Source: Octopus vulgaris (lineage: Eukaryota). From it: 64,000 bases of DNA. The DNA is taken from NCBI GenBank assembly GCA_951406725.2, contig OX597814.1, positions 150,598,001 through 150,662,000 of the forward strand, read 5' to 3'. Of the stretch, positions 9,119-60,400 are shown one piece after another; the stretch's first letter is position 1; each line of letters starts with the position of its first letter. The translations under genes were made by a program, and so were the position numbers. The notes under the pieces were generated by a model, which was given only the letters and a program-made list of their open reading frames with translations, did no database searches and was not told where the DNA came from.

Positions 9119-9440
9119 GTAGATAGATAGATAGATAGATACAGGAGCAAACAATTCACCAGAAAAATAATTCACGAAAAATTAATTTGCGAAGATATCA
9201 TTAATTCTGTTATTATCCAATGTAACTATTTTTAAAAAAATGATAATAACAGAATCAATAATATAGATGATTGCAGTCCCCAAAAAATCGATCAATTTTA
9301 ATATATATATATATATATATATTGTTATATTTCGGAATGGTCATATTGCCAGTTTAGCCAATAAAAACACACGCACTATATATTTGGTGTTATTTTGCTT
9401 CAGTGATATTTATTTTTTACATTAATCTTAATCTTATTTC

Positions 9441-9485
9441 GGCCAAAGTTCTTTCGTCACACTCCTGTGACCGCATCAGTGGTCC
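9441..9485 (-). ncRNA. Minimal type-I hammerhead-like motif in the PLE pseudo-LTR (3' copy)
   Basis: Sense strand GGACCA-CUGAUGC-G-GUCACA(GGAG)UGUGAC-GAAA-GAACU-U-UGGCC. Perfect 6-bp stem II, bulged stem I, A9->C variant. PLE pLTRs are known to carry minimal HHRs. Confidence 0.6.
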
Positions 9486-10006
9486 TTTGTTTTCTTCTCA
9501 CTTACTTGTGTCTCTCCTTACTAACAGTCAGCCATTTTGTATTTCTATTGTATGTCTTCATTTGCGCATGCTTATATCTCTATGTGCGTCTATGTTTATT
9601 TAGTGTGTGTGTGGGGGGGATGCCTGTAATATTTGTATCTTCTGGTTATATACATTCTTGTAATTTGTATTTTGTTTTTGTTGTTGTTGCTTTTGTTCTA
9701 ATTTTGTTCATGTGTTTACATCCACCCATTATCATCATTACATATGCTTGTATGTATGTATAACAACAATATTAGTAATAATAATAATAAATCTAATCGA
9801 AAAAAAAAAAAAAAAAAAAGAATATACATATACACATATATATATACATACACATACATATACATATATATATATATATACATATATACACACACATATA
9901 TACACATATACATATACATATATATACACATATACATATATATAGATATTCATTTCTATTTCTTTAATTACCTGTGTATTTATTATGTTTGCAGGATCCA
10001 CTATTG

Positions 10007-10231
10007 TCATATGTTGTGGTGTGCGCTATTGCTCCATTCTAGTTTTCTATTCAGGCTAGGTTTATTTTCTATTATATGTGTAGCTTCTGTAATTTGTCTA
10101 ATTGTTGCATCTGTTCTATGTGTGGACAATATCTTAATCTCTATGTTATTGATTGATCCCCCGTGTTCTTGTTCGGCGTGTTGGTACAGAATCGATGAGC
10201 TTTTACCTTCCTTGAGTTGTCTCCAATTTTT
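10007..10231 (-). CDS. C-terminal half of the PLE GIY-YIG endonuclease, separated from the main ORF by a 1-nt frameshift in an A5 run
   Basis: Reads [21 protein letters not shown]...[22 protein letters not shown], supplying His residues, the catalytic Glu (ITEA) and the Asn (PSLN) of GIY-YIG. Removing one base from the T5 run at 10227-10231 fuses it in frame to ...ERVNE. Confidence 0.88.
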
Positions 10232-13200
10232 CATTCACCCGCTCACCAATGCTTCTTGCAGTTTCCCCTACGTATGTTACTGTCTTGTTACTGCATTGTC
10301 CCTCTATACATCTTATACTATAGACCACATTTCTGGCTTTACAGTTCGTTTGTGGGCTAAATCTACATACAGTGCAATAGTTATCCGTACAGAGAGTTCT
10401 ACTAAAAGGATAGCTTCTACCAATTATAGATCTGATAGGGTTGCCTGGCTTTTCAACAACCTTAATTCTTAGTTTAAGTTTATCTAGGGTCCTTCTAAAG
10501 CGGTACGCTAGTTCACCTCCAGGGGTGGTGTCAACGAACATGACACTCTGGTATTTATGGCTATCATACCAAGAGTTGGCCTTCCCTATTTTCTTTTTTG
10601 TCCTTTCTATAGTGTTCCATGACTTGTTCCTATAGAGTGGGCAAATCCCATTCCTATCATTACATAATATATTATCAAATTTTTTCATGGCTCCTTTGTA
10701 TACTCTGATCCTTTCTTTATGGCTGTAACCTGAGAACTGCATGCGGTGAATGAAATACTGTATGTGTCTCTTTAATTCTGTAGGCTCGCACATGCGTGAC
10801 ACATTTCTCATTATTCTGACGAGGTCTGCCATCGAAATATTGAATTTGGCATTGCCCGCAATGGCTGAGTTCCGGTGGATCAGGTATTTTGAGGCCATAG
10901 GTTTTGCATAGTATGAATGAAGGATTTGGGTTTGGGTTTTATTTTTCACAATTTCTAGCCAGAGTTCAGTGTCTAGTACTGGTAGTCTATGGTTGGGGTG
11001 TTTAGTGGGGTAGTCTATTGTGACCTTAATACTCTGGTGGATGGAGTTAGCTATTTGCTGGATGCTCTCCATAGTATTAGTTTCTATTACTATATCAACA
11101 GTACTCTCTTGTGGGGGTGCCTTTACTACTATATTGATATCATCAACATAGCGAGAGTACATGTTTACGAGTATGGATTTCTGCAGTAGGCATTCTTTAA
11201 GCCTTCTGTCCCACCATACCATGAAGAGGTTGGCCACATCACCAGCGATACTAACACCGATGGCTGCCCCCTCGTCCTGGGCATATATTTTATTATTAAA
11301 TTTAAATGTGTGGCCTTTTAGGGTAACTCTTATACTAGCTCCTAGTGCATGTGCGATCATTTTCTTTACCTGATGGACATTTGCGGGGCTCCGTATGGCT
11401 CTGGTCCATCCGCGCCATCTTTCTATATGTGTCTTCCTAGCCATAGAAGTAATTGTAGGCGGTCTACCTCTTAAACATCTACTGGGGCAGAAACTACTAA
11501 GGTTATGTTTATCTAAGTATTCACTATTATATGTCAGTCTAAGTAGGAGGCCCAGTTCTTCTGTGTCGACATTACAGAACTCCACCTGGCTCTCGTTGAT
11601 CATCTCCACGCACTTCTCCACTGCAAAATCTACGTCAATCGATGGGTATAGGGATACCACATCCATGCTACCTACTATACATCCTGTCAAGTCACAAGTT
11701 TTGTTACAGTCACTGATCCTGCTTAGGAGATCTTCTGTGCTGTCACACACATCAGGTGACATCCTGATTATAGGGCGTATGATCATTGAGAGGAAGTAGG
11801 AGATTCTGTAATTGCTAGCGATATTCGCTCCACAGACTGGTCTTGTTGGTGGTCCTGCTATAGGGTCAGTAAAACCTTTATGGTCCTTGCGAAGTCCATA
11901 CAGTGCCGGGATATCATTGTTCCAGGCTTGGAAATTCTTTGCAGTACGTTTCTGAGGTCCCAGAACAATTGTCCACATCATCATGTGGGCATTGAGGACC
12001 TTTTCTCTCTCCTCATGCGCCTGTACAGTTGTTACTTTTGTATTGGCGATATGAGGTTGCATTGCCTGGATGTAGTTCGGTAAGCTGTCTATTGACATCC
12101 TGCCGGACTTATCCGTGGGAAGGCATATCACCTCTCCGTTCCTCGTGCGCTGAATGAGCTTCTGTAGGCCACATGCAGGTTTAATCCCTAGTTGTTGGGC
12201 ATCTGTCTTATTCTGTCTCTGTCTCTTAATGTATAATCCTAAAATCTGTCTAAGTTTGGTCCTAGCTATAGTGAACTGTGCTTCCATGTGGTCATTAGTA
12301 CGTCTTGGGATGTATACTCTTTTGTTGAAGGGTAATGTTGTTGGATAAATTCGGTTCATGCAGTAAGTTTTGTCGCATACGTTGAAGAATTGAGTGTCAA
12401 AGGGATGGGTATACATGTCAATGGTCTCTCTAGGGTTATCTTCATTATCGTTACTGTTTCCAACATCAGCCTTCCTATTATTATTATCACCATTACCACT
12501 ACTACTACTACTAGTATTCCTATTACCACCACAATTATCACTACTATCCTTATTACTACTTCTACTGTTACCATCACCACTACTACTACCACTATTATTG
12601 TTATTACCTTTATTCCTACCATTGCCATTATTACTATCATCGCTAGTGATATATTCATTGTTCCTGTTTCTGGTATATGTGTTGTTTATATTAGTGTTGG
12701 GTTTTATGTCTGTCTGTTGGTCCCTGTCAATCCCCCTGTTGCGGTCGTTATTTTTGTTCCTATGAGTATTGTTATCTGTTTCAAGTCCGCTGACTCCCTG
12801 TCCAAGGATCCTGTTGCATTCAACTTTATTCTCCATCGTGACCCCTATGACACAACTTTTATTCGTGTCTTTGTGACTATGGCTATCTGTGTGTGTGTTT
12901 GTGTGTCGGTTCTCCCTATAATTGTTGTTGTTGTTGCTGTTGTATACGATTTTTCTCTCTCTGTTTGTGTTTTTGTTTTTGTATCTATTGTTTGTGTCTA
13001 TGCATACATTTTTTCTATTGTTATTGTTGTTGTCGCTGTTAGGGTTGTTGTTGTTGTTGCCTCTGTTAGGGTTCGTGTTGCTTTTGTTGCTACGGTTGTT
13101 ATTGTTGCGGTCATTATTGTTTGTGTTGTTGTTGCTGCGGTTAGTGTTTTTCGCGTTGTTGTTGTTGTCGCAAGTGTTGTTGTCATAGTATCTATTTAAA

Positions 13201-13931
13201 TTCCAACGTATTTTTTTGAACGACTTTTCAATCTCGGACAGGCATTTGATGGTATTCACTTTACTATACACTGCATACTTTGGTGGTAGTTGAAGTATCG
13301 ATATTTCATCTGGGTCCGTTGTTACTCCCCCATAGATGTTTGCTTCATTGTCTTTATTGAACTCTTCTGGTAGTAGCACATCTTCCATAATAATTCCATT
13401 TATTGTATCTGGATACTTCTGCTTTTCTTCCTTTGCGAGCTCATATTGACGTTTCTGTTTCAACCACGATAACTTCCTCTTAAAATGGATATTGCATTGG
13501 TGTATTACATGTCTGTTTTCTTCATATATTATATCCATTATTAAGGTTTTCTCCTTTCGTGTGGTGATACTTTTAATTTCTTTTAAAAATATACGTTTAC
13601 GCTTCTCTTGTTCGCTCAGCTCTCTGTATATTCTATTTCTTATATTTACCATTAGCGTCCTTTTTAGTCTTTCCGCTTGTCCGTTAGTGAGGTCAAGCCG
13701 TTTAACGTTGGCTGTGACCTTGTTGATACATATCCTGGACGAGACACATTGTTTTATAAAACGAAGCTGTTGCGTTGTCACAGTTTTCTTTAGGCAACAA
13801 AATATAGTGTTCTTCAGCATCTTGCAAGCCTGGCTGTGGCTCACGTTAGTACGTTTAAATATTTGTTGTGCAAGATTTTTTATGTGAAGTCGTGTGTTGA
13901 AACAGATATTGTTATATTTCGGAATGGTCAT
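10203..13931 (-). CDS. PLE polyprotein: N-terminal domain, Asn-rich linker, reverse transcriptase, Cys-rich linker, N-terminal part of GIY-YIG endonuclease
   Basis: 1242-aa ORF with a true ATG at 13931. PLE RT motifs [36 protein letters not shown] and YSRYVDDI; thumb region VLDTEL...YAKPMAS; linker C-x4-C-x2-C; GIY-YIG VVYSIRC-x4-C...[12 protein letters not shown]. Confidence 0.95.
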
Positions 13932-14696
13932 ATTGCCAGTTTAGCCAATAAAAACACACGCACTATATATTTGGTGTTATTTTGCTTCAGTGATATTTAT
14001 TTTTTACATTAATCTTAATCTTATTTCGGCCAAAGTTCTTTCGTCACACTCCTGTGACCGCATAGAACAGATGCAACAATTAGACAAATTACAGAAGCTA
14101 CACATATAATAGAAAATAAACCTAGCCTGAATAGAAAACTAGAATGGAGCAATAGCGCACACCACAACATATGACAATAGTGGATCCTGCAAACATAATA
14201 AATACACAGGTAATTAAAGAAATAGAAATGAATATCTATATATATGTATATGTGTATATATATGTATATGTATATGTGTATATATGTGTGTATATATGTA
14301 TATATATATATATATATGTATATGTATGTGTATGTATATATATATGTGTATATGTATATTCTTTTTTTTTTTTTTTTTTTTTCGATTAGATTTATTATTA
14401 TTATTACTAATATTGTTGTTATACATACATACAAGCATATGTAATGATGATAATGGGTGGATGTAAACACATGAACAAAATTAGAACAAAAGCAACAACA
14501 ACAAAAACAAAATACAAATTACAAGAATGTATATAACCAGAAGATACAAATATTACAGGCATCCCCCCCACACACACACTAAATAAACATAGACGCACAT
14601 AGAGATATAAGCATGCGCAAATGAAGACATACAATAGAAATACAAAATGGCTGACGGTTAGTAAGGAGAGACACAAGTAAGTGAGAAGAAAACAAA

Positions 14697-14741
14697 GGAC
14701 CACTGATGCGGTCACAGGAGTGTGACGAAATAACTTTGGCC
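14697..14741 (+). ncRNA. Hammerhead-like motif in the inverted PLE arm
   Basis: Same motif as 9441-9485 with one substitution in stem III (GAAA-UAACU-U). Confidence 0.55.
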
Positions 14742-14911
14742 GAAATAAGATTAAGATTAATGTAAAAAATAAATATCACTGAAGCAAAATAACACCAAAT
14801 ATATAGTGCGTGTGTTTTTATTGGCTAAACTGGCAATATGACCATTCCGAAATATAACAATATCTGTTTCAACACACGACTTCACATAAAAAATCTTGCA
14901 CAACAAATATT

Positions 14912-14949
<38 letters not shown>

Positions 14950-15047
14950 CATACACACATAGATGTTGTATATATGAATTTTCTTGTGATTTAGCTTACA
15001 TCTAATTTGCCTTGTTCTGGCCTTACCCAAGAATTATATATATATAA

Positions 15048-15605
15048 CCCTGTTCGAAGGTTTATAATGGACGCAGGTTGTGAGTCAAATAGCTAGCTTG
15101 AGGCGGTGGCCTCTTGGAGCTAATCAGCGACAGCTTTAGTCTTATATTTATAAGACTGCCATATTAGTATAGCGATAACTATTAATTTCCAGTAACGCTG
15201 CCGTAATCTCCTTTAGAGAGACTTAGTAATTTTAATATTTCTATTATTGAAAACAAGTGGATGTATTCCACTGAAACTAGGTAAATAGATTCTTCGAACA
15301 GGGACAGTCAGTAGCGACACCTGCTGGGTCTGACTACGCTGCATTGATAAAGGGCAAATACCCTGAAACATGTCTGCAGCTGTCTGACTGGCAGGATGAA
15401 GCGGCTGACCTCCCCGTTCGAAGGTTTATAATGGACGCAGGTTGTGTGTCAAATAGCTAGCTTGAGGCGGTGGCCTCTGGGAGCTAATCAGCGACAGCTT
15501 TAGTCTTATATTTATAAGACTGCCATATTAGTATGGCGATAACTATTAATTTCCAGTAACGCTGCTGTAATCTCCTTTAGAGAGACTTAGTAATTTTAAT
15601 ATTTC

Positions 15606-15610
<5 letters not shown>
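15048..15610 (+). mobile_element. Retrozyme-like / non-autonomous PLE: about 1.55 tandem copies of a 364-nt unit with one HHR, flanked by (TA)n
   Basis: ~199-bp direct repeats at 15048-15246 and 15412-15610 with only a few mismatches. HHR lies in the unique part. TA runs on both sides. No ORF. Confidence 0.8.
15338..15380 (+). ncRNA. Minimal type-I hammerhead ribozyme, U3-A8 variant
   Basis: GCUGCA-UUGAUAA-AGGG(CAAAUA)CCCU-GAAACAUGUC-UGCAGC. Perfect 6-bp stem I, 4-bp stem II, palindromic ACAUGU stem III, GUC cleavage triplet. Confidence 0.85.
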
Positions 15611-15642
<32 letters not shown>

Positions 15643-57461: not shown

Positions 57462-60400
57462 TTTAATCCAAACGGGAAACAAAAAAACAACAACAAGGGA
57501 ACAATTACAGTATTATTATTAATAGGCGCTCAGGAAATGGAAGCAGGGAGGTATGACGTTTCGAGCGGAGCTCTTCGTCGGAAACATAAAGAAGGAAGAG
57601 AGAGGAAAGAAAGATCCCGGAGCGGGCAACGGAGATAGAGAAAAAAACGGCTGGTGTTAGCAGTAGCACATGGTGAAAGGCGGATGTTTACGATAACAAG
57701 AGCAAAGTGGGTTTTTAAAGGCAAAAGAGTGGAGACAAGGTTGGTAACGCAACAGATGTGTGTGTATGTGTGAGTGTGTGCGTGTGCGTGTGTGTATGTG
57801 TGTGTGTGAGGCGAGGTAAAAAAACAAAAAATATATGTATGTGTTAGTGTGTGCGTCTGTGTGTAGGCGTGTGAGGTAGGGCGAGACGGTGGTCAGCATA
57901 GCAGCAGCATAGCAGACAAAGGTCTGTAGTGAGAAAAGGGAGGAAGGAGGAAGGGAGGGAGGGGAAGGGGTGGGGGCGTATGTAGCGTGCCAGCGTGTGT
58001 TGAGTAGTAGTGTGTGTGTGTGTCCAGTGTCGTGGTAGTATTAGTGGCGAGTAGATTGAATGTGTGTAAGAGTGATGTATATGTTTAAGCAATGTGTGTA
58101 TATGTGTGCGCGTGTGTGTAACGAAAAAAAAGGGGGGGGGTTAGGAAAAGGACTCCAGCGGAGGGGAAGATGGAAGAGTGGTCCCGCGGAGACGGCGTGG
58201 GAAAACCCAACGACAAGCGACATCCCAGGAACGGGCGGGAGGTCTCGTCGGGTCCAAGGGCGAGGTGCATGCGGGCGCATGCGTGCGCGAACCGGCGCAA
58301 ACGCGTGTGTGCGCGAGCCTGCGAGTGTGCGCGTACGTATGTGTGCGTGTGGATGTGTGAGTGTGTCTGTGTGTATGTCTGGGTGGCAGTGTGTCCGATG
58401 AATGTATGTGAGTATGTGTGTATATATGTGTGTGCATAGATGTATGTCCGTGTGTGTGTGTGTGTGTATGTGTGTATGAGTGTGTATGTATGTACGTGTG
58501 GGTGTGGGGAAGTGTGTGTATGTGCATGTGTGTGCGCGAACATACAGGTGTGTGAGTGAGTGCGTGTGTGTGTATGTATGTGTGAGTGTGTATGTATGTG
58601 TGTGTAGGATGCATGTATGTGTATGGGTGTATGTATGCGTGTGTGTATGTATGTATGTGTACGTGCGTGTGTGTGTGTGTATGCGTGTAGGTGTGCGCGT
58701 GTGCATGCGTGCATGTATGTGCGTATGTGTGTGTGTGTGCATGTGTGTGGGTATATATGTGTGTGCGTATATGTGTGTGTATGTGCGTACATGTGTGTGT
58801 GTGTGCATGTGTGTGTGTAGGTGTGTAGGCGTGTGTGTATAGGTGTATGTATGTAAGTATGTATGGGTGTGTCCGTGTATGTGTGTATGTATGTGTGTGT
58901 ATGTAGCTGTGTGGGCGTGTGTATATGTGTGTGTATGTAGGTGTGTAGGCGTGTGTATATAGGTGTATGTATGTATGTCTGGGTGTGTCCGTGCATGTTT
59001 GTGTGTGTGTGTGTGTGCATGTGTATGTAGGTGTGTGTGTACGTGTGTAATGTATGTGTGTATGCGTGTGTATGCGTGCGTGTGTGTATGTAGGTGCGTG
59101 TGTATGTGTGTGGGAGTGTAGGTGTGTGTGTGCGTGTGCGTGTTTATGTTGGTGTGTGCGTATGTGAGTGTGAGTGTATGAGTGTTTGTCATGCATGTGT
59201 GTGCGCGTGCAGGTGAGTGTGTGTGTAAGTATGTGTGTGTGTATGTTTGTGTGAGTGTGTATGTGTGTATGTCTGTGTGTATGTATGTGCGTATAGGAGT
59301 ATGTAGGTATGTGTGTGTGTATGTATATGGGTGTATGTATGTGTGTGTGTGTGCATGTGTATAAGTATATGCGTGTGTGCGTATGTGTGTGTATGTGTAT
59401 GTGTGTGTGTTTATGTATGTGTGTATGTATGTGTGTAGGCGTGAGTGTGTAGATGTATCTATGTATGGGTGTGTGTCAGTGTGTGTTTGTGTGTGTGTAG
59501 GTAGATGTGTGTGTCTGAGTGAGGGTATGGCTGTGTAGGTGTGTGTGTGTATGAATGTAAGTGTGTGCGTATACAAGTGTAATGTATGTATGTGGGTGTG
59601 TGTGTGTGTGTGTATGTGTACGTGTGCGTGTGTATGTGTGTGTGTGTATGCGTGTGAGTGTGGGTGTATGGGTGTATGTCTGTGTGTGTGTATGTCTGAA
59701 GTGGGTATGTGTGTGTATGTATGTATGTGTGTGTGTGTGCGGGTATGTGTGTGTGTGTATGTGTGTGTGTGAGTAGGTGTGCGTGTATGTATGTGGGTAG
59801 GGATGCATGCGAGTGTGTGGGTATGTATGCAAACATACGCAAGCGCACAACCGAAGCAAGCCCACACACACGAAGCGCGCTCACGCACACAACGCACAAG
59901 CAGTGCAACGCAAGCCCAAAGGGGCCGACCGAGCCCCAGCGCGCGCCAAGGCGCGCGAGCGCAAAGGCCCTCGAACGCCCCGCTACGCGGGAACCGAGGA
60001 TCCATCAGCCAAAACCGGAAAGCAGAAAAGAGGGGGGGGGCTGCCTGGATGCAAAAAGGTGTATGTGTGTGTGCATTCAGTGTACGGGTGTATATATATA
60101 CATATATGTATATATATATGTATATATATACATATATGTCTATATATATACATATATGTATATATATACATATATATACATATATGTATACACACAACTA
60201 CGCACACTGCACACACACACACTACCACTCAACACACACACTGGCACGTTACATACGCCCCCAGCTTTTCCCTCCTTCCCTTCTTCCCTCCTTCCTCCCT
60301 TTTTTTTACCACTGACCACTCACTCGAGACTTGCTATGTCATCCGTTCGCCCTGCATGAACTAACATATACATATTTTTTGTTTTTTTTATCTCGCCTCA

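Follow-up and report, generated by a model that had tools for sequence, protein, structure and literature searches.

What is the 364-nt non-coding repeat that lies, as 1.55 head-to-tail units, beside a Penelope-like element (PLE) in the genome of Octopus vulgaris, and which enzyme and which template put it there? The locus is part of a window of 64,000 nt, the whole stretch of DNA analysed here (assembly GCA_951406725.2, contig OX597814.1, forward-strand positions 150,598,001 to 150,662,000). An earlier note, made from the letters of the window alone, had described it as a retrozyme-like insertion reverse-transcribed from a 364-nt circular RNA or a tandem template. We read the insert as a 5'-truncated copy of a non-LTR retrozyme, put into a TA microsatellite by a PLE reverse transcriptase that read a predicted 364-nt circle 1.55 times, and give this reading as a whole a probability of about one half. 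Its parts are not equally firm: the unit is very probably a retrozyme, a PLE enzyme is its likely mobiliser, and the case for a circle over uncleaved tandem RNA is little better than even.

Table 1. Features of the insertion and of the neighbouring PLE (positions in the window)
Feature	Position	Strand	Remarks
PLE, unit length 4,587 nt, 1.03 units present	9319..14063	-	3' end in (TA)n
PLE pLTR, 158 nt	13906-14063 = 9319-9476	-	100% identical
PLE minimal hammerhead-like motif	9443..9482 (core at 9479)	-	second copy from 14703, +
PLE ORF	10203..13940	-	RT (DKS, YVDD), CX4CxxC linker, C-terminal GIY-YIG-type endonuclease
Inverted 5'-truncated PLE piece	14061..14915	+	ends in (TA)n
Spacer, TA run of the PLE to the unit	14946..15034	.	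belongs to neither
(TA)n run, left junction	15035..15046	.	
Whole insertion, 1.55 units of the 364-nt non-coding repeat	15048..15611	+	564 nt
One full 364-nt unit	15048..15411	+	42% GC
Closing stem of the non-ribozyme domain	15048-59 with 15292-303 (15048..15303)	+	12 perfect bp; predicted fold
Type I hammerhead motif	15334..15384	+	own descriptor; predicted cut after 15374 (GUC)
Hammerhead stem I, 6 bp	15338-43/15375-80	+	
Hammerhead core UUGAUAA	15344-50	+	U3-A8 in place of C3-G8
Hammerhead stem II, 4 bp	15351-54/15361-64	+	loop CAAAUA
Hammerhead GAAA	15365-68	+	
Hammerhead stem III, palindrome ACAUGU	15368-73	+	1-2 bp within the palindrome
Second unit, incomplete (200 nt)	15412..15611	+	differs from the first at 5 positions; stops where 3' ends recur in the family
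(TA)n run, right junction	15609..15638	.	overlaps the last letters of the element (microhomology)

The repeat unit and its hammerhead motif

Self-comparison of the window gave a direct repeat of 200 nt (15048-15247 and 15412-15611) with a period of 364 nt and 97.5% identity, the substitutions being at 15051/15415, 15083/15447, 15115/15479, 15171/15535 and 15202/15566; no further copy of the unit was found within the 64 kb. The 1.55 tandem copies and the period given by the earlier note stand, but the repeat is 200 nt long rather than 199 bp, its last letters being shared with the right-hand TA run. Both junctions of the insert sit in (TA)n, as had been seen before; because the right run overlaps the final letters of the element, no target-site duplication can be read there. 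The proposed distance of about 130 bp from the PLE is also correct, with the inverted PLE piece stopping 132 nt before the unit. On the circularised unit, the longest ATG-initiated frame is 11 aa on the forward and 52 aa on the reverse strand, in agreement with the reported lack of an open reading frame.

Fixed TG...CA ends of the LTR type with PBS and PPT, which the earlier note had named as a pattern that would speak against its interpretation, were not found. The termini of the unit read CCCTG...ATTAT, LTR termini are absent, and our own pattern for a PBS-like motif gave no match in the unit. These properties, together with the type I topology of the hammerhead, led us to reject an LTR retrozyme. 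Plant LTR retrozymes share with the unit that they are non-coding, contain a hammerhead and have a proposed circular intermediate, but their hammerhead is of type III and located in the LTRs, and they have PBS, PPT and a 4-bp target-site duplication, none of which was found in the unit (PMC7229834; bioRxiv 10.64898/2026.07.22.740005). A tRNA-derived SINE was rejected as well: ARAGORN returned zero genes, and with our own patterns no A box or full B box was found, only a 7-nt partial match to the B box.

Two other parts of the window may be mentioned here. A short interspersed repeat, which we take to be the common octopus SINE, occurs in at least eight copies (16180, 16801, 20891, 29030, 29685, 31729, 56327 and 56511). 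Between 58100 and 60400, a 1.5-kb degenerate (GT)n tract, responsible for long stop-free frames at 58041-60364, lies between GC-rich, CpG-rich pieces of odd composition; this region may reflect poor assembly, or else a satellite of an unusual kind.

Folding of the circular monomer, as the earlier note had proposed, predicts a highly self-paired molecule: the circularised unit has a free energy of −121.6 kcal/mol, a z-score of −5.9 (against 60 shuffles) and 64% of its bases paired, and the linear unit has a z-score of −6.0. The predicted fold has two domains. The first is closed by a long stem, the base of which coincides with the 5' end of the window copy. The second is a rod that terminates in the ribozyme, the core of which is unpaired in the centroid structure.

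The hammerhead of the unit matches the canonical animal type I architecture, with a U3-A8 variant of the core, and is predicted to cut itself. Canonical metazoan type I hammerheads have stems of 6 and 4 bp and a palindromic third stem of 1-2 bp, and work as dimers (PMC4209133); the U3-A8 pair is a natural covariation that is known to be active (PMC4209133, PMC3088659). U15381, C15337 and A15360 occupy the three tertiary-contact positions of the Schistosoma ribozyme (PMC2632901). The Schistosoma mansoni type I hammerhead has the same loop 2, and its U1 and C8 (both in internal loop 1) and A6 (in loop 2) have counterparts at the equivalent sites of the unit; it differs from the unit, for which activity is a prediction, in the core pair and in the other letters of loop 1 (PMC2632901).

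The descriptor by which the motif was recognised was written by us for this work. Its only strict match in 128 kb, that is, in both strands of the window, is the one in the unit, at 15344, and it had no match when the unit was shuffled 20,000 times and the window 100 times. Rfam gave no hammerhead, neither at the gathering score nor at E ≤ 5, and the hammerhead pattern had no match in JGI metagenomes. An Rfam hairpin-ribozyme hit over the motif (E 1.2) was rejected as due to chance, and the other Rfam hits as microsatellite artefacts. The earlier note had spoken of a single well-formed hammerhead with a GUC triplet cut after 15374. There is indeed one motif, on the forward strand, but "well-formed" must be qualified, given the U3-A8 core, an A-U pair at 10.1-11.1 where G-C is usual, and the lack of an Rfam match. 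As the locus contains just one hammerhead, it is predicted not to release a monomer by itself.

Copies, copy ends and variation

The family was surveyed in four public runs from four studies, aligned on 14962-15411 at 85% likeness; two of these (X3 and X4) are probable DNA runs, and the other two (X8 and X15) were assigned to RNA by a guess. Of the 24 listed runs, 20 contain the stretch in whole or in part; these come from nine studies and carry four organism labels. Related contigs number 3,258 in X3, 2,553 in X4, and 190 and 48 in X8 and X15. In X3, 840 contigs are at least 99% identical, 999 are between 95 and 99%, 1,031 between 90 and 95% and 388 under 90%, so that 2,418 of the 3,258 fall below 99%. 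Single contigs reach depths of 2,334 and 1,053, compared with 55 for a contig that extends 1.9 kb into other sequence; summed contig depths give no copy number and cannot rank parts of the unit. The head-to-tail junction (15411 to 15048) is present in all four runs, in several sequence variants. The unit is thus not the single-copy local duplication that the earlier note had considered as its alternative, and its proposal of a multi-copy retrozyme-like family is borne out by thousands of related contigs with different flanks. The presence of the family in X8 and X15 was rejected as a sign of transcription, as the left flank is covered in both and both are similar to the DNA runs; contigs reveal neither the strand, nor the ends, nor the level of an RNA. 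No RNA run is listed among those that contain the stretch, which has no bearing on expression. The sequence to the left of the unit (14977-15036) is repeated in its own right, at a lower copy number, in each of the four runs.

Copy ends were taken from 24 of 395 loose ends and 32 of 6,117 pieces. In these, (TA)n follows 15247, the position equivalent to the 3' end of the window copy, in at least two X8 and at least two X15 contigs, one of which differs from the window by eight letters and a gap and therefore represents another copy. Other flanks follow 15246 in X15 (255 nt) and in X3 (463 nt; 11 differences). Many contigs extend beyond 15247, which makes this a preferred 3' end and not the sole one. 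Among the same listed ends, 5' starts are at 15078 (244-nt flank), 15264 (1.9-kb flank) and 15308 (behind a TA run), and probably also at 15089 and 15145. Joints between opposite strands were found in X3 and X4 (15172/15339 and 15386/15346).

Circularly permuted ends had been expected by the earlier note; we find a 3' end that recurs at 15246-15247 and 5' ends that vary, which is not the pattern of free permutation. A recurring 3' end, variable 5' ends, inversions and (TA)n fit the footprint of a PLE, judged from the sequence of the copies. Insertions by PLEs are characterised by 5' truncation, partial tandems, inversions and TA bias (PMC8557442), and a lizard PLE was found to start copying inside the RNA in vitro, by internal initiation (PMC11167929). 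The insert in the window runs unbroken through the predicted cut site, so a cleaved linear monomer would have been too short to serve as its template. The more-than-unit footprint noticed earlier is thus real, and both a circle and an uncleaved tandem template fit it.

Strong divergence among copies, with several subfamilies, is present at 15277-15312, where contig depth falls. We rejected the sharp fall at about 15277-15290 as evidence of a second 3' end, since depths cannot rank parts of the unit and diverged subfamilies start there; a second 3' end may nevertheless be located 30-40 nt beyond the first, at 15277-15312.

Variation among copies mostly spares the core of the ribozyme and keeps the palindrome of stem III. 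Among the 40 variants listed of 51, those in the ribozyme affect N7, positions 4 and 5 of loop II, and 10.1 (A to G, with the pair kept). In stem I, C15377U leads to a wobble pair, and G15338U and C15380A would be compensatory if present on one contig. In loop III, GC stands in place of AU in X3, X4 and X8, at depths that match, which turns ACAUGU into ACGCGU, preserving the palindrome; the predicted self-duplexes have energies of −4.6 and −7.5 kcal/mol, respectively. Contrary variants are a change of G12, found in a single contig of X15 and, as a trace, in X3, as well as a change of U11.1, which is rare except in one X15 contig. Unpaired positions take 21 of the 40 listed variants against 36% expected (p 0.026); ten variants keep or restore a pair and nine break a predicted one, at least one of the latter being an artefact of the minimum-energy fold. 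With the core, the tertiary-contact bases and the palindrome conserved across copies, the ribozyme seems to be under selection, and what is selected would seem to be cleavage.

Of the 13 polymorphic positions listed for the repeated part, 11 have the same letter in both repeats of the window, and the other two are changes private to copy 1. This suggests that one haplotype was read twice.

By the sequence features that can be tested here, the unit belongs to the metazoan non-LTR retrozymes described by Cervera & de la Pena in 2020 (PMC7229834). It has in common with them a non-coding unit of 150-450 bp with a GC content under 50%, a type I hammerhead with a short palindromic helix III, a self-paired circular fold that leaves the ribozyme free, head-to-tail junctions, the absence of LTR, PBS and PPT, and the presence of PLEs in the same genome; closest in size are the 350-390-bp units of Mytilus galloprovincialis and Rtz_331/353 of the axolotl (PMC7229834). 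The U3-A8 core, the A10.1-U11.1 pair and the cephalopod host set it apart from the known members (PMC7229834). The copy in the window is dispersed, has 1.55 units and a single hammerhead, and belongs to a family for which expression and circles are predicted. A recurring 3' end leading into (TA)n, variable 5' ends and inversions are absent from the descriptions in the available text of that paper. Target-site duplications of metazoan non-LTR retrozymes, when present, are longer than 4 bp; at the octopus insert, both junctions lie in (TA)n.

The neighbouring PLE

The neighbouring element has the RT, the CX2-5CxxC linker and the C-terminal GIY-YIG endonuclease by which Neptune/Nematis-type PLEs are defined (PMC8557442), the last part of the endonuclease being in another frame (break near 10235). 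Proteins labelled Octopus vulgaris match its protein with 98-99% identity, which points to this species or a close relative as the host. Pfam gave no match to the whole ORF and only a weak one of the C-terminal part to RVT_1 (E 0.0015), and no match was found in the PDB. The element and its inverted piece (9319-14915) form a near-complete, young insertion, joined head-to-head where 3 nt overlap (14061-14063); priming on both strands of the target would be expected to give such a joint. The inverted piece copies the 3' part of the PLE (803 nt, six differences) and extends 52 nt past the 3' end of the first copy, longer than the 30-40-nt tail described for PLEs. Both 3' ends enter (TA)n with microhomology, as does the 3' end of the unit.

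Some further features of the PLE were observed. At 12340-13200 on the reverse strand, its ORF contains, in frame and before the RT, a low-complexity stretch of about 250 aa rich in Asn, Ser and Gly, encoded by microsatellite-like DNA; relatives aligned over the full length have only short stretches at this site. In the 3' untranslated region (9765-9950), a poly(T) of about 22 nt lies beside a 125-nt TA/TG microsatellite (in the sense of the element), and this is faithfully repeated in the inverted copy (14231-14415). The inverted piece and the unit have the same sense (14703-15374, forward strand), and a read-through RNA would contain both hammerheads, about 640 nt apart.

The hammerhead-like motif of the PLE is minimal, with a stem I of 3 bp, a stem II of 6 bp and an extra base before stem II. 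In both copies a C is present where A9 is expected and helix III is non-palindromic; judged by its sequence, the activity of this motif is doubtful. It is thus of a different type from the canonical hammerhead of the unit, and there is no homology between the unit and the PLE (best match 11 nt, E 0.85). The unit is, on these comparisons, not a derivative of the adjacent element, and the adjacency pointed out by the earlier note reflects no kinship in sequence. The loci of 12 related PLEs, on short contigs, contained a TA run in no case and a match to the unit in no case; one of them, on a metagenome contig (L009), has a minimal hammerhead, at 2007, downstream of the ORF.

What the unit and Neptune/Nematis-type PLEs do share is the manner of insertion: partial tandems, 5' truncation, inverted pieces and (TA)n targets (PMC8557442, PMC4209133), all four of which are exhibited by the neighbouring PLE. 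They differ in that the unit is non-coding and its hammerhead canonical instead of minimal (PMC8557442, PMC4209133).

Differences between repeats amount to 5 in 200 for the unit and 6 in 961 for the PLE (Fisher p 0.027, or 0.049 for the 803-nt pair alone). On a clock borrowed from PMC13282606, these correspond to about 3.5 My (1.1-8.1) and 0.9 My (0.3-1.9), respectively. The insertion may be called recent, as it was in the earlier note, in the sense of roughly 1-8 My on this borrowed clock, but by its repeats it is probably older than the PLE beside it (p 0.03-0.05). Insertion of both as one event was judged less likely, given the 89-nt unrelated spacer and the differing, if borderline, divergence. 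The window contains 71 TA runs of at least 12 nt, and 34 of the 70 gaps between them are 150 nt or shorter. The simplest reading is that of two independent insertions into neighbouring TA runs, the PLE most likely being a separate, somewhat younger one with the same architecture and target.

Template, enzyme and significance

In the mechanism we favour, source loci with at least two hammerheads would be transcribed, and the RNA would be cut by ribozyme dimers formed via the palindromic stem III. The 364-nt monomer thus released would be closed by a host ligase; formation of circles has been demonstrated for the retrozymes of coral, mussel and axolotl, in which they accumulate (PMC7229834). A PLE protein with a CXnCxxC linker would nick (TA)n DNA and begin to copy the RNA from a favoured site in its interior, at window position 15611, which is 237 nt downstream of the cut. 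It would continue through the junction and stop variably, here at 15048, sometimes with inversion. Against this mechanism, the single hammerhead of the locus places it outside the "active retrozymes" as defined in bioRxiv 10.64898/2026.07.22.740005, and eight of nine predicted Xenopus retrozymes did not cleave in vitro (same preprint); the short contigs surveyed here cannot display arrays with two complete hammerheads.

The same family and the same enzyme could also have produced the insert from a linear RNA that was transcribed from a tandem source locus and left uncleaved, with no need for a circle, and we regard this as a real possibility, if not the one towards which we lean. Purified PLE protein used unprocessed RNA as its main template in vitro, hammerhead cleavage not being required (PMC11167929), and the weak stem III of the unit predicts poor cleavage as a monomer (PMC4209133). 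The neighbouring PLE itself comprises 1.03 units, with a second piece longer by 52 nt, and a homogeneous tandem would equally explain one haplotype being read twice. On the other hand, an uncleaved template sits less well with the conservation of the ribozyme core, the tertiary-contact bases and the stem III palindrome across copies and with the circles of other animals, and 5' truncation would be expected to shorten the sources with each generation unless a circle restored their length. Selection on the ribozyme and the erosion of sources that truncation would otherwise cause are our reasons for slightly favouring the circle.

The PLE-type ends and inversions would also be expected if the unit were the detached pLTR of an unseen PLE family, that is, truncated ends of an autonomous element. 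In Xenopus, 21 PLEs match retrozyme families at their pLTRs (bioRxiv 10.64898/2026.07.22.740005), and U3-A8 cores were first seen in PLE hammerheads, those of Schistosoma (PMC4209133). We consider this origin quite unlikely: the entire 364 nt closes head-to-tail with no start of an ORF, the hammerhead is of the canonical retrozyme type and not of the minimal PLE type, and neither the neighbouring PLE nor the 12 related loci, albeit on short contigs, match the unit. Non-LTR retrozymes have been argued to be PLE derivatives by Li, Clavereau & Pollet, with invertebrates not examined in this respect (bioRxiv 10.64898/2026.07.22.740005). The vertebrate retrozymes of their study resemble the octopus family in their proposed mobilisation by PLEs and their many solo and partial copies, but the link was made there by co-occurrence and pLTR homology, and here by the insertion footprint; 24 of 57 Xenopus families were pLTR-derived, in contrast to the octopus unit with its lack of homology to the adjacent PLE (same preprint).

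Very unlikely, in our view, is a retrozyme moved by a LINE-type enzyme, for example of the abundant octopus RTE, CR1 or R4/Dong families, instead of a PLE. LINE priming is also compatible with a fixed 3' end, 5' truncation and inversions such as those of the unit, and no sequence link from the unit to a PLE was found. LINEs are moreover the most active order in O. vulgaris (PMC13282606). The unit, however, has neither a poly(A) or tandem tail of its own nor a LINE-like 3' end, its 3' end falls within a unit that is continuous as a circle, as in PLEs (PMC11167929), and the adjacent PLE has the same type of junction at both ends. Lastly, the idea that the locus was duplicated locally at the DNA level or is what remains of a satellite, its hammerhead-like motif being due to chance, to which the single occurrence in the window and the lack of an Rfam match might point, deserves hardly any credence in the face of thousands of related contigs with different flanks, the shuffling results and covariation within the motif.

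A bolder form of the reading we prefer is a cephalopod retrozyme of thousands of copies, reverse-transcribed in trans, directly from a 364-nt RNA circle made by the ribozyme, by a TA-targeting PLE with fixed internal initiation, perhaps with a second initiation site 30-40 nt on (the PLE "tail"). We put this forward tentatively, as a proposal more likely to prove wrong than right in some part. If it is true, over-unit insertions document rolling-circle retrotransposition in the genome, and they would reveal which enzyme mobilises animal retrozymes even though the two share no sequence.

Our search of the literature, which left most subscription papers outside its scope, found no report of an octopus retrozyme. 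The main text of PMC7229834 has neither "octopus" nor "cephalopod", though its supplement may list cephalopods, and the available text of PMC13282606 has neither "ribozyme" nor "retrozyme". The kind of element is known from other animals, and its octopus member is likely to be new. For animal retrozymes, the mobilising enzyme and the use of circles are still treated as hypotheses (PMC7229834; bioRxiv 10.64898/2026.07.22.740005). The octopus family, with its many copies, recurring 3' end and PLE-type junctions, offers a test case for the mobilising enzyme, and because its host has a chromosome-scale assembly and recently active PLEs (31 families; PMC13282606), mapping of ends and reconstitution as in PMC11167929 are feasible. 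A label at the level of function can, moreover, be given to a repeat that is probably listed as unknown or as a SINE in octopus annotations.
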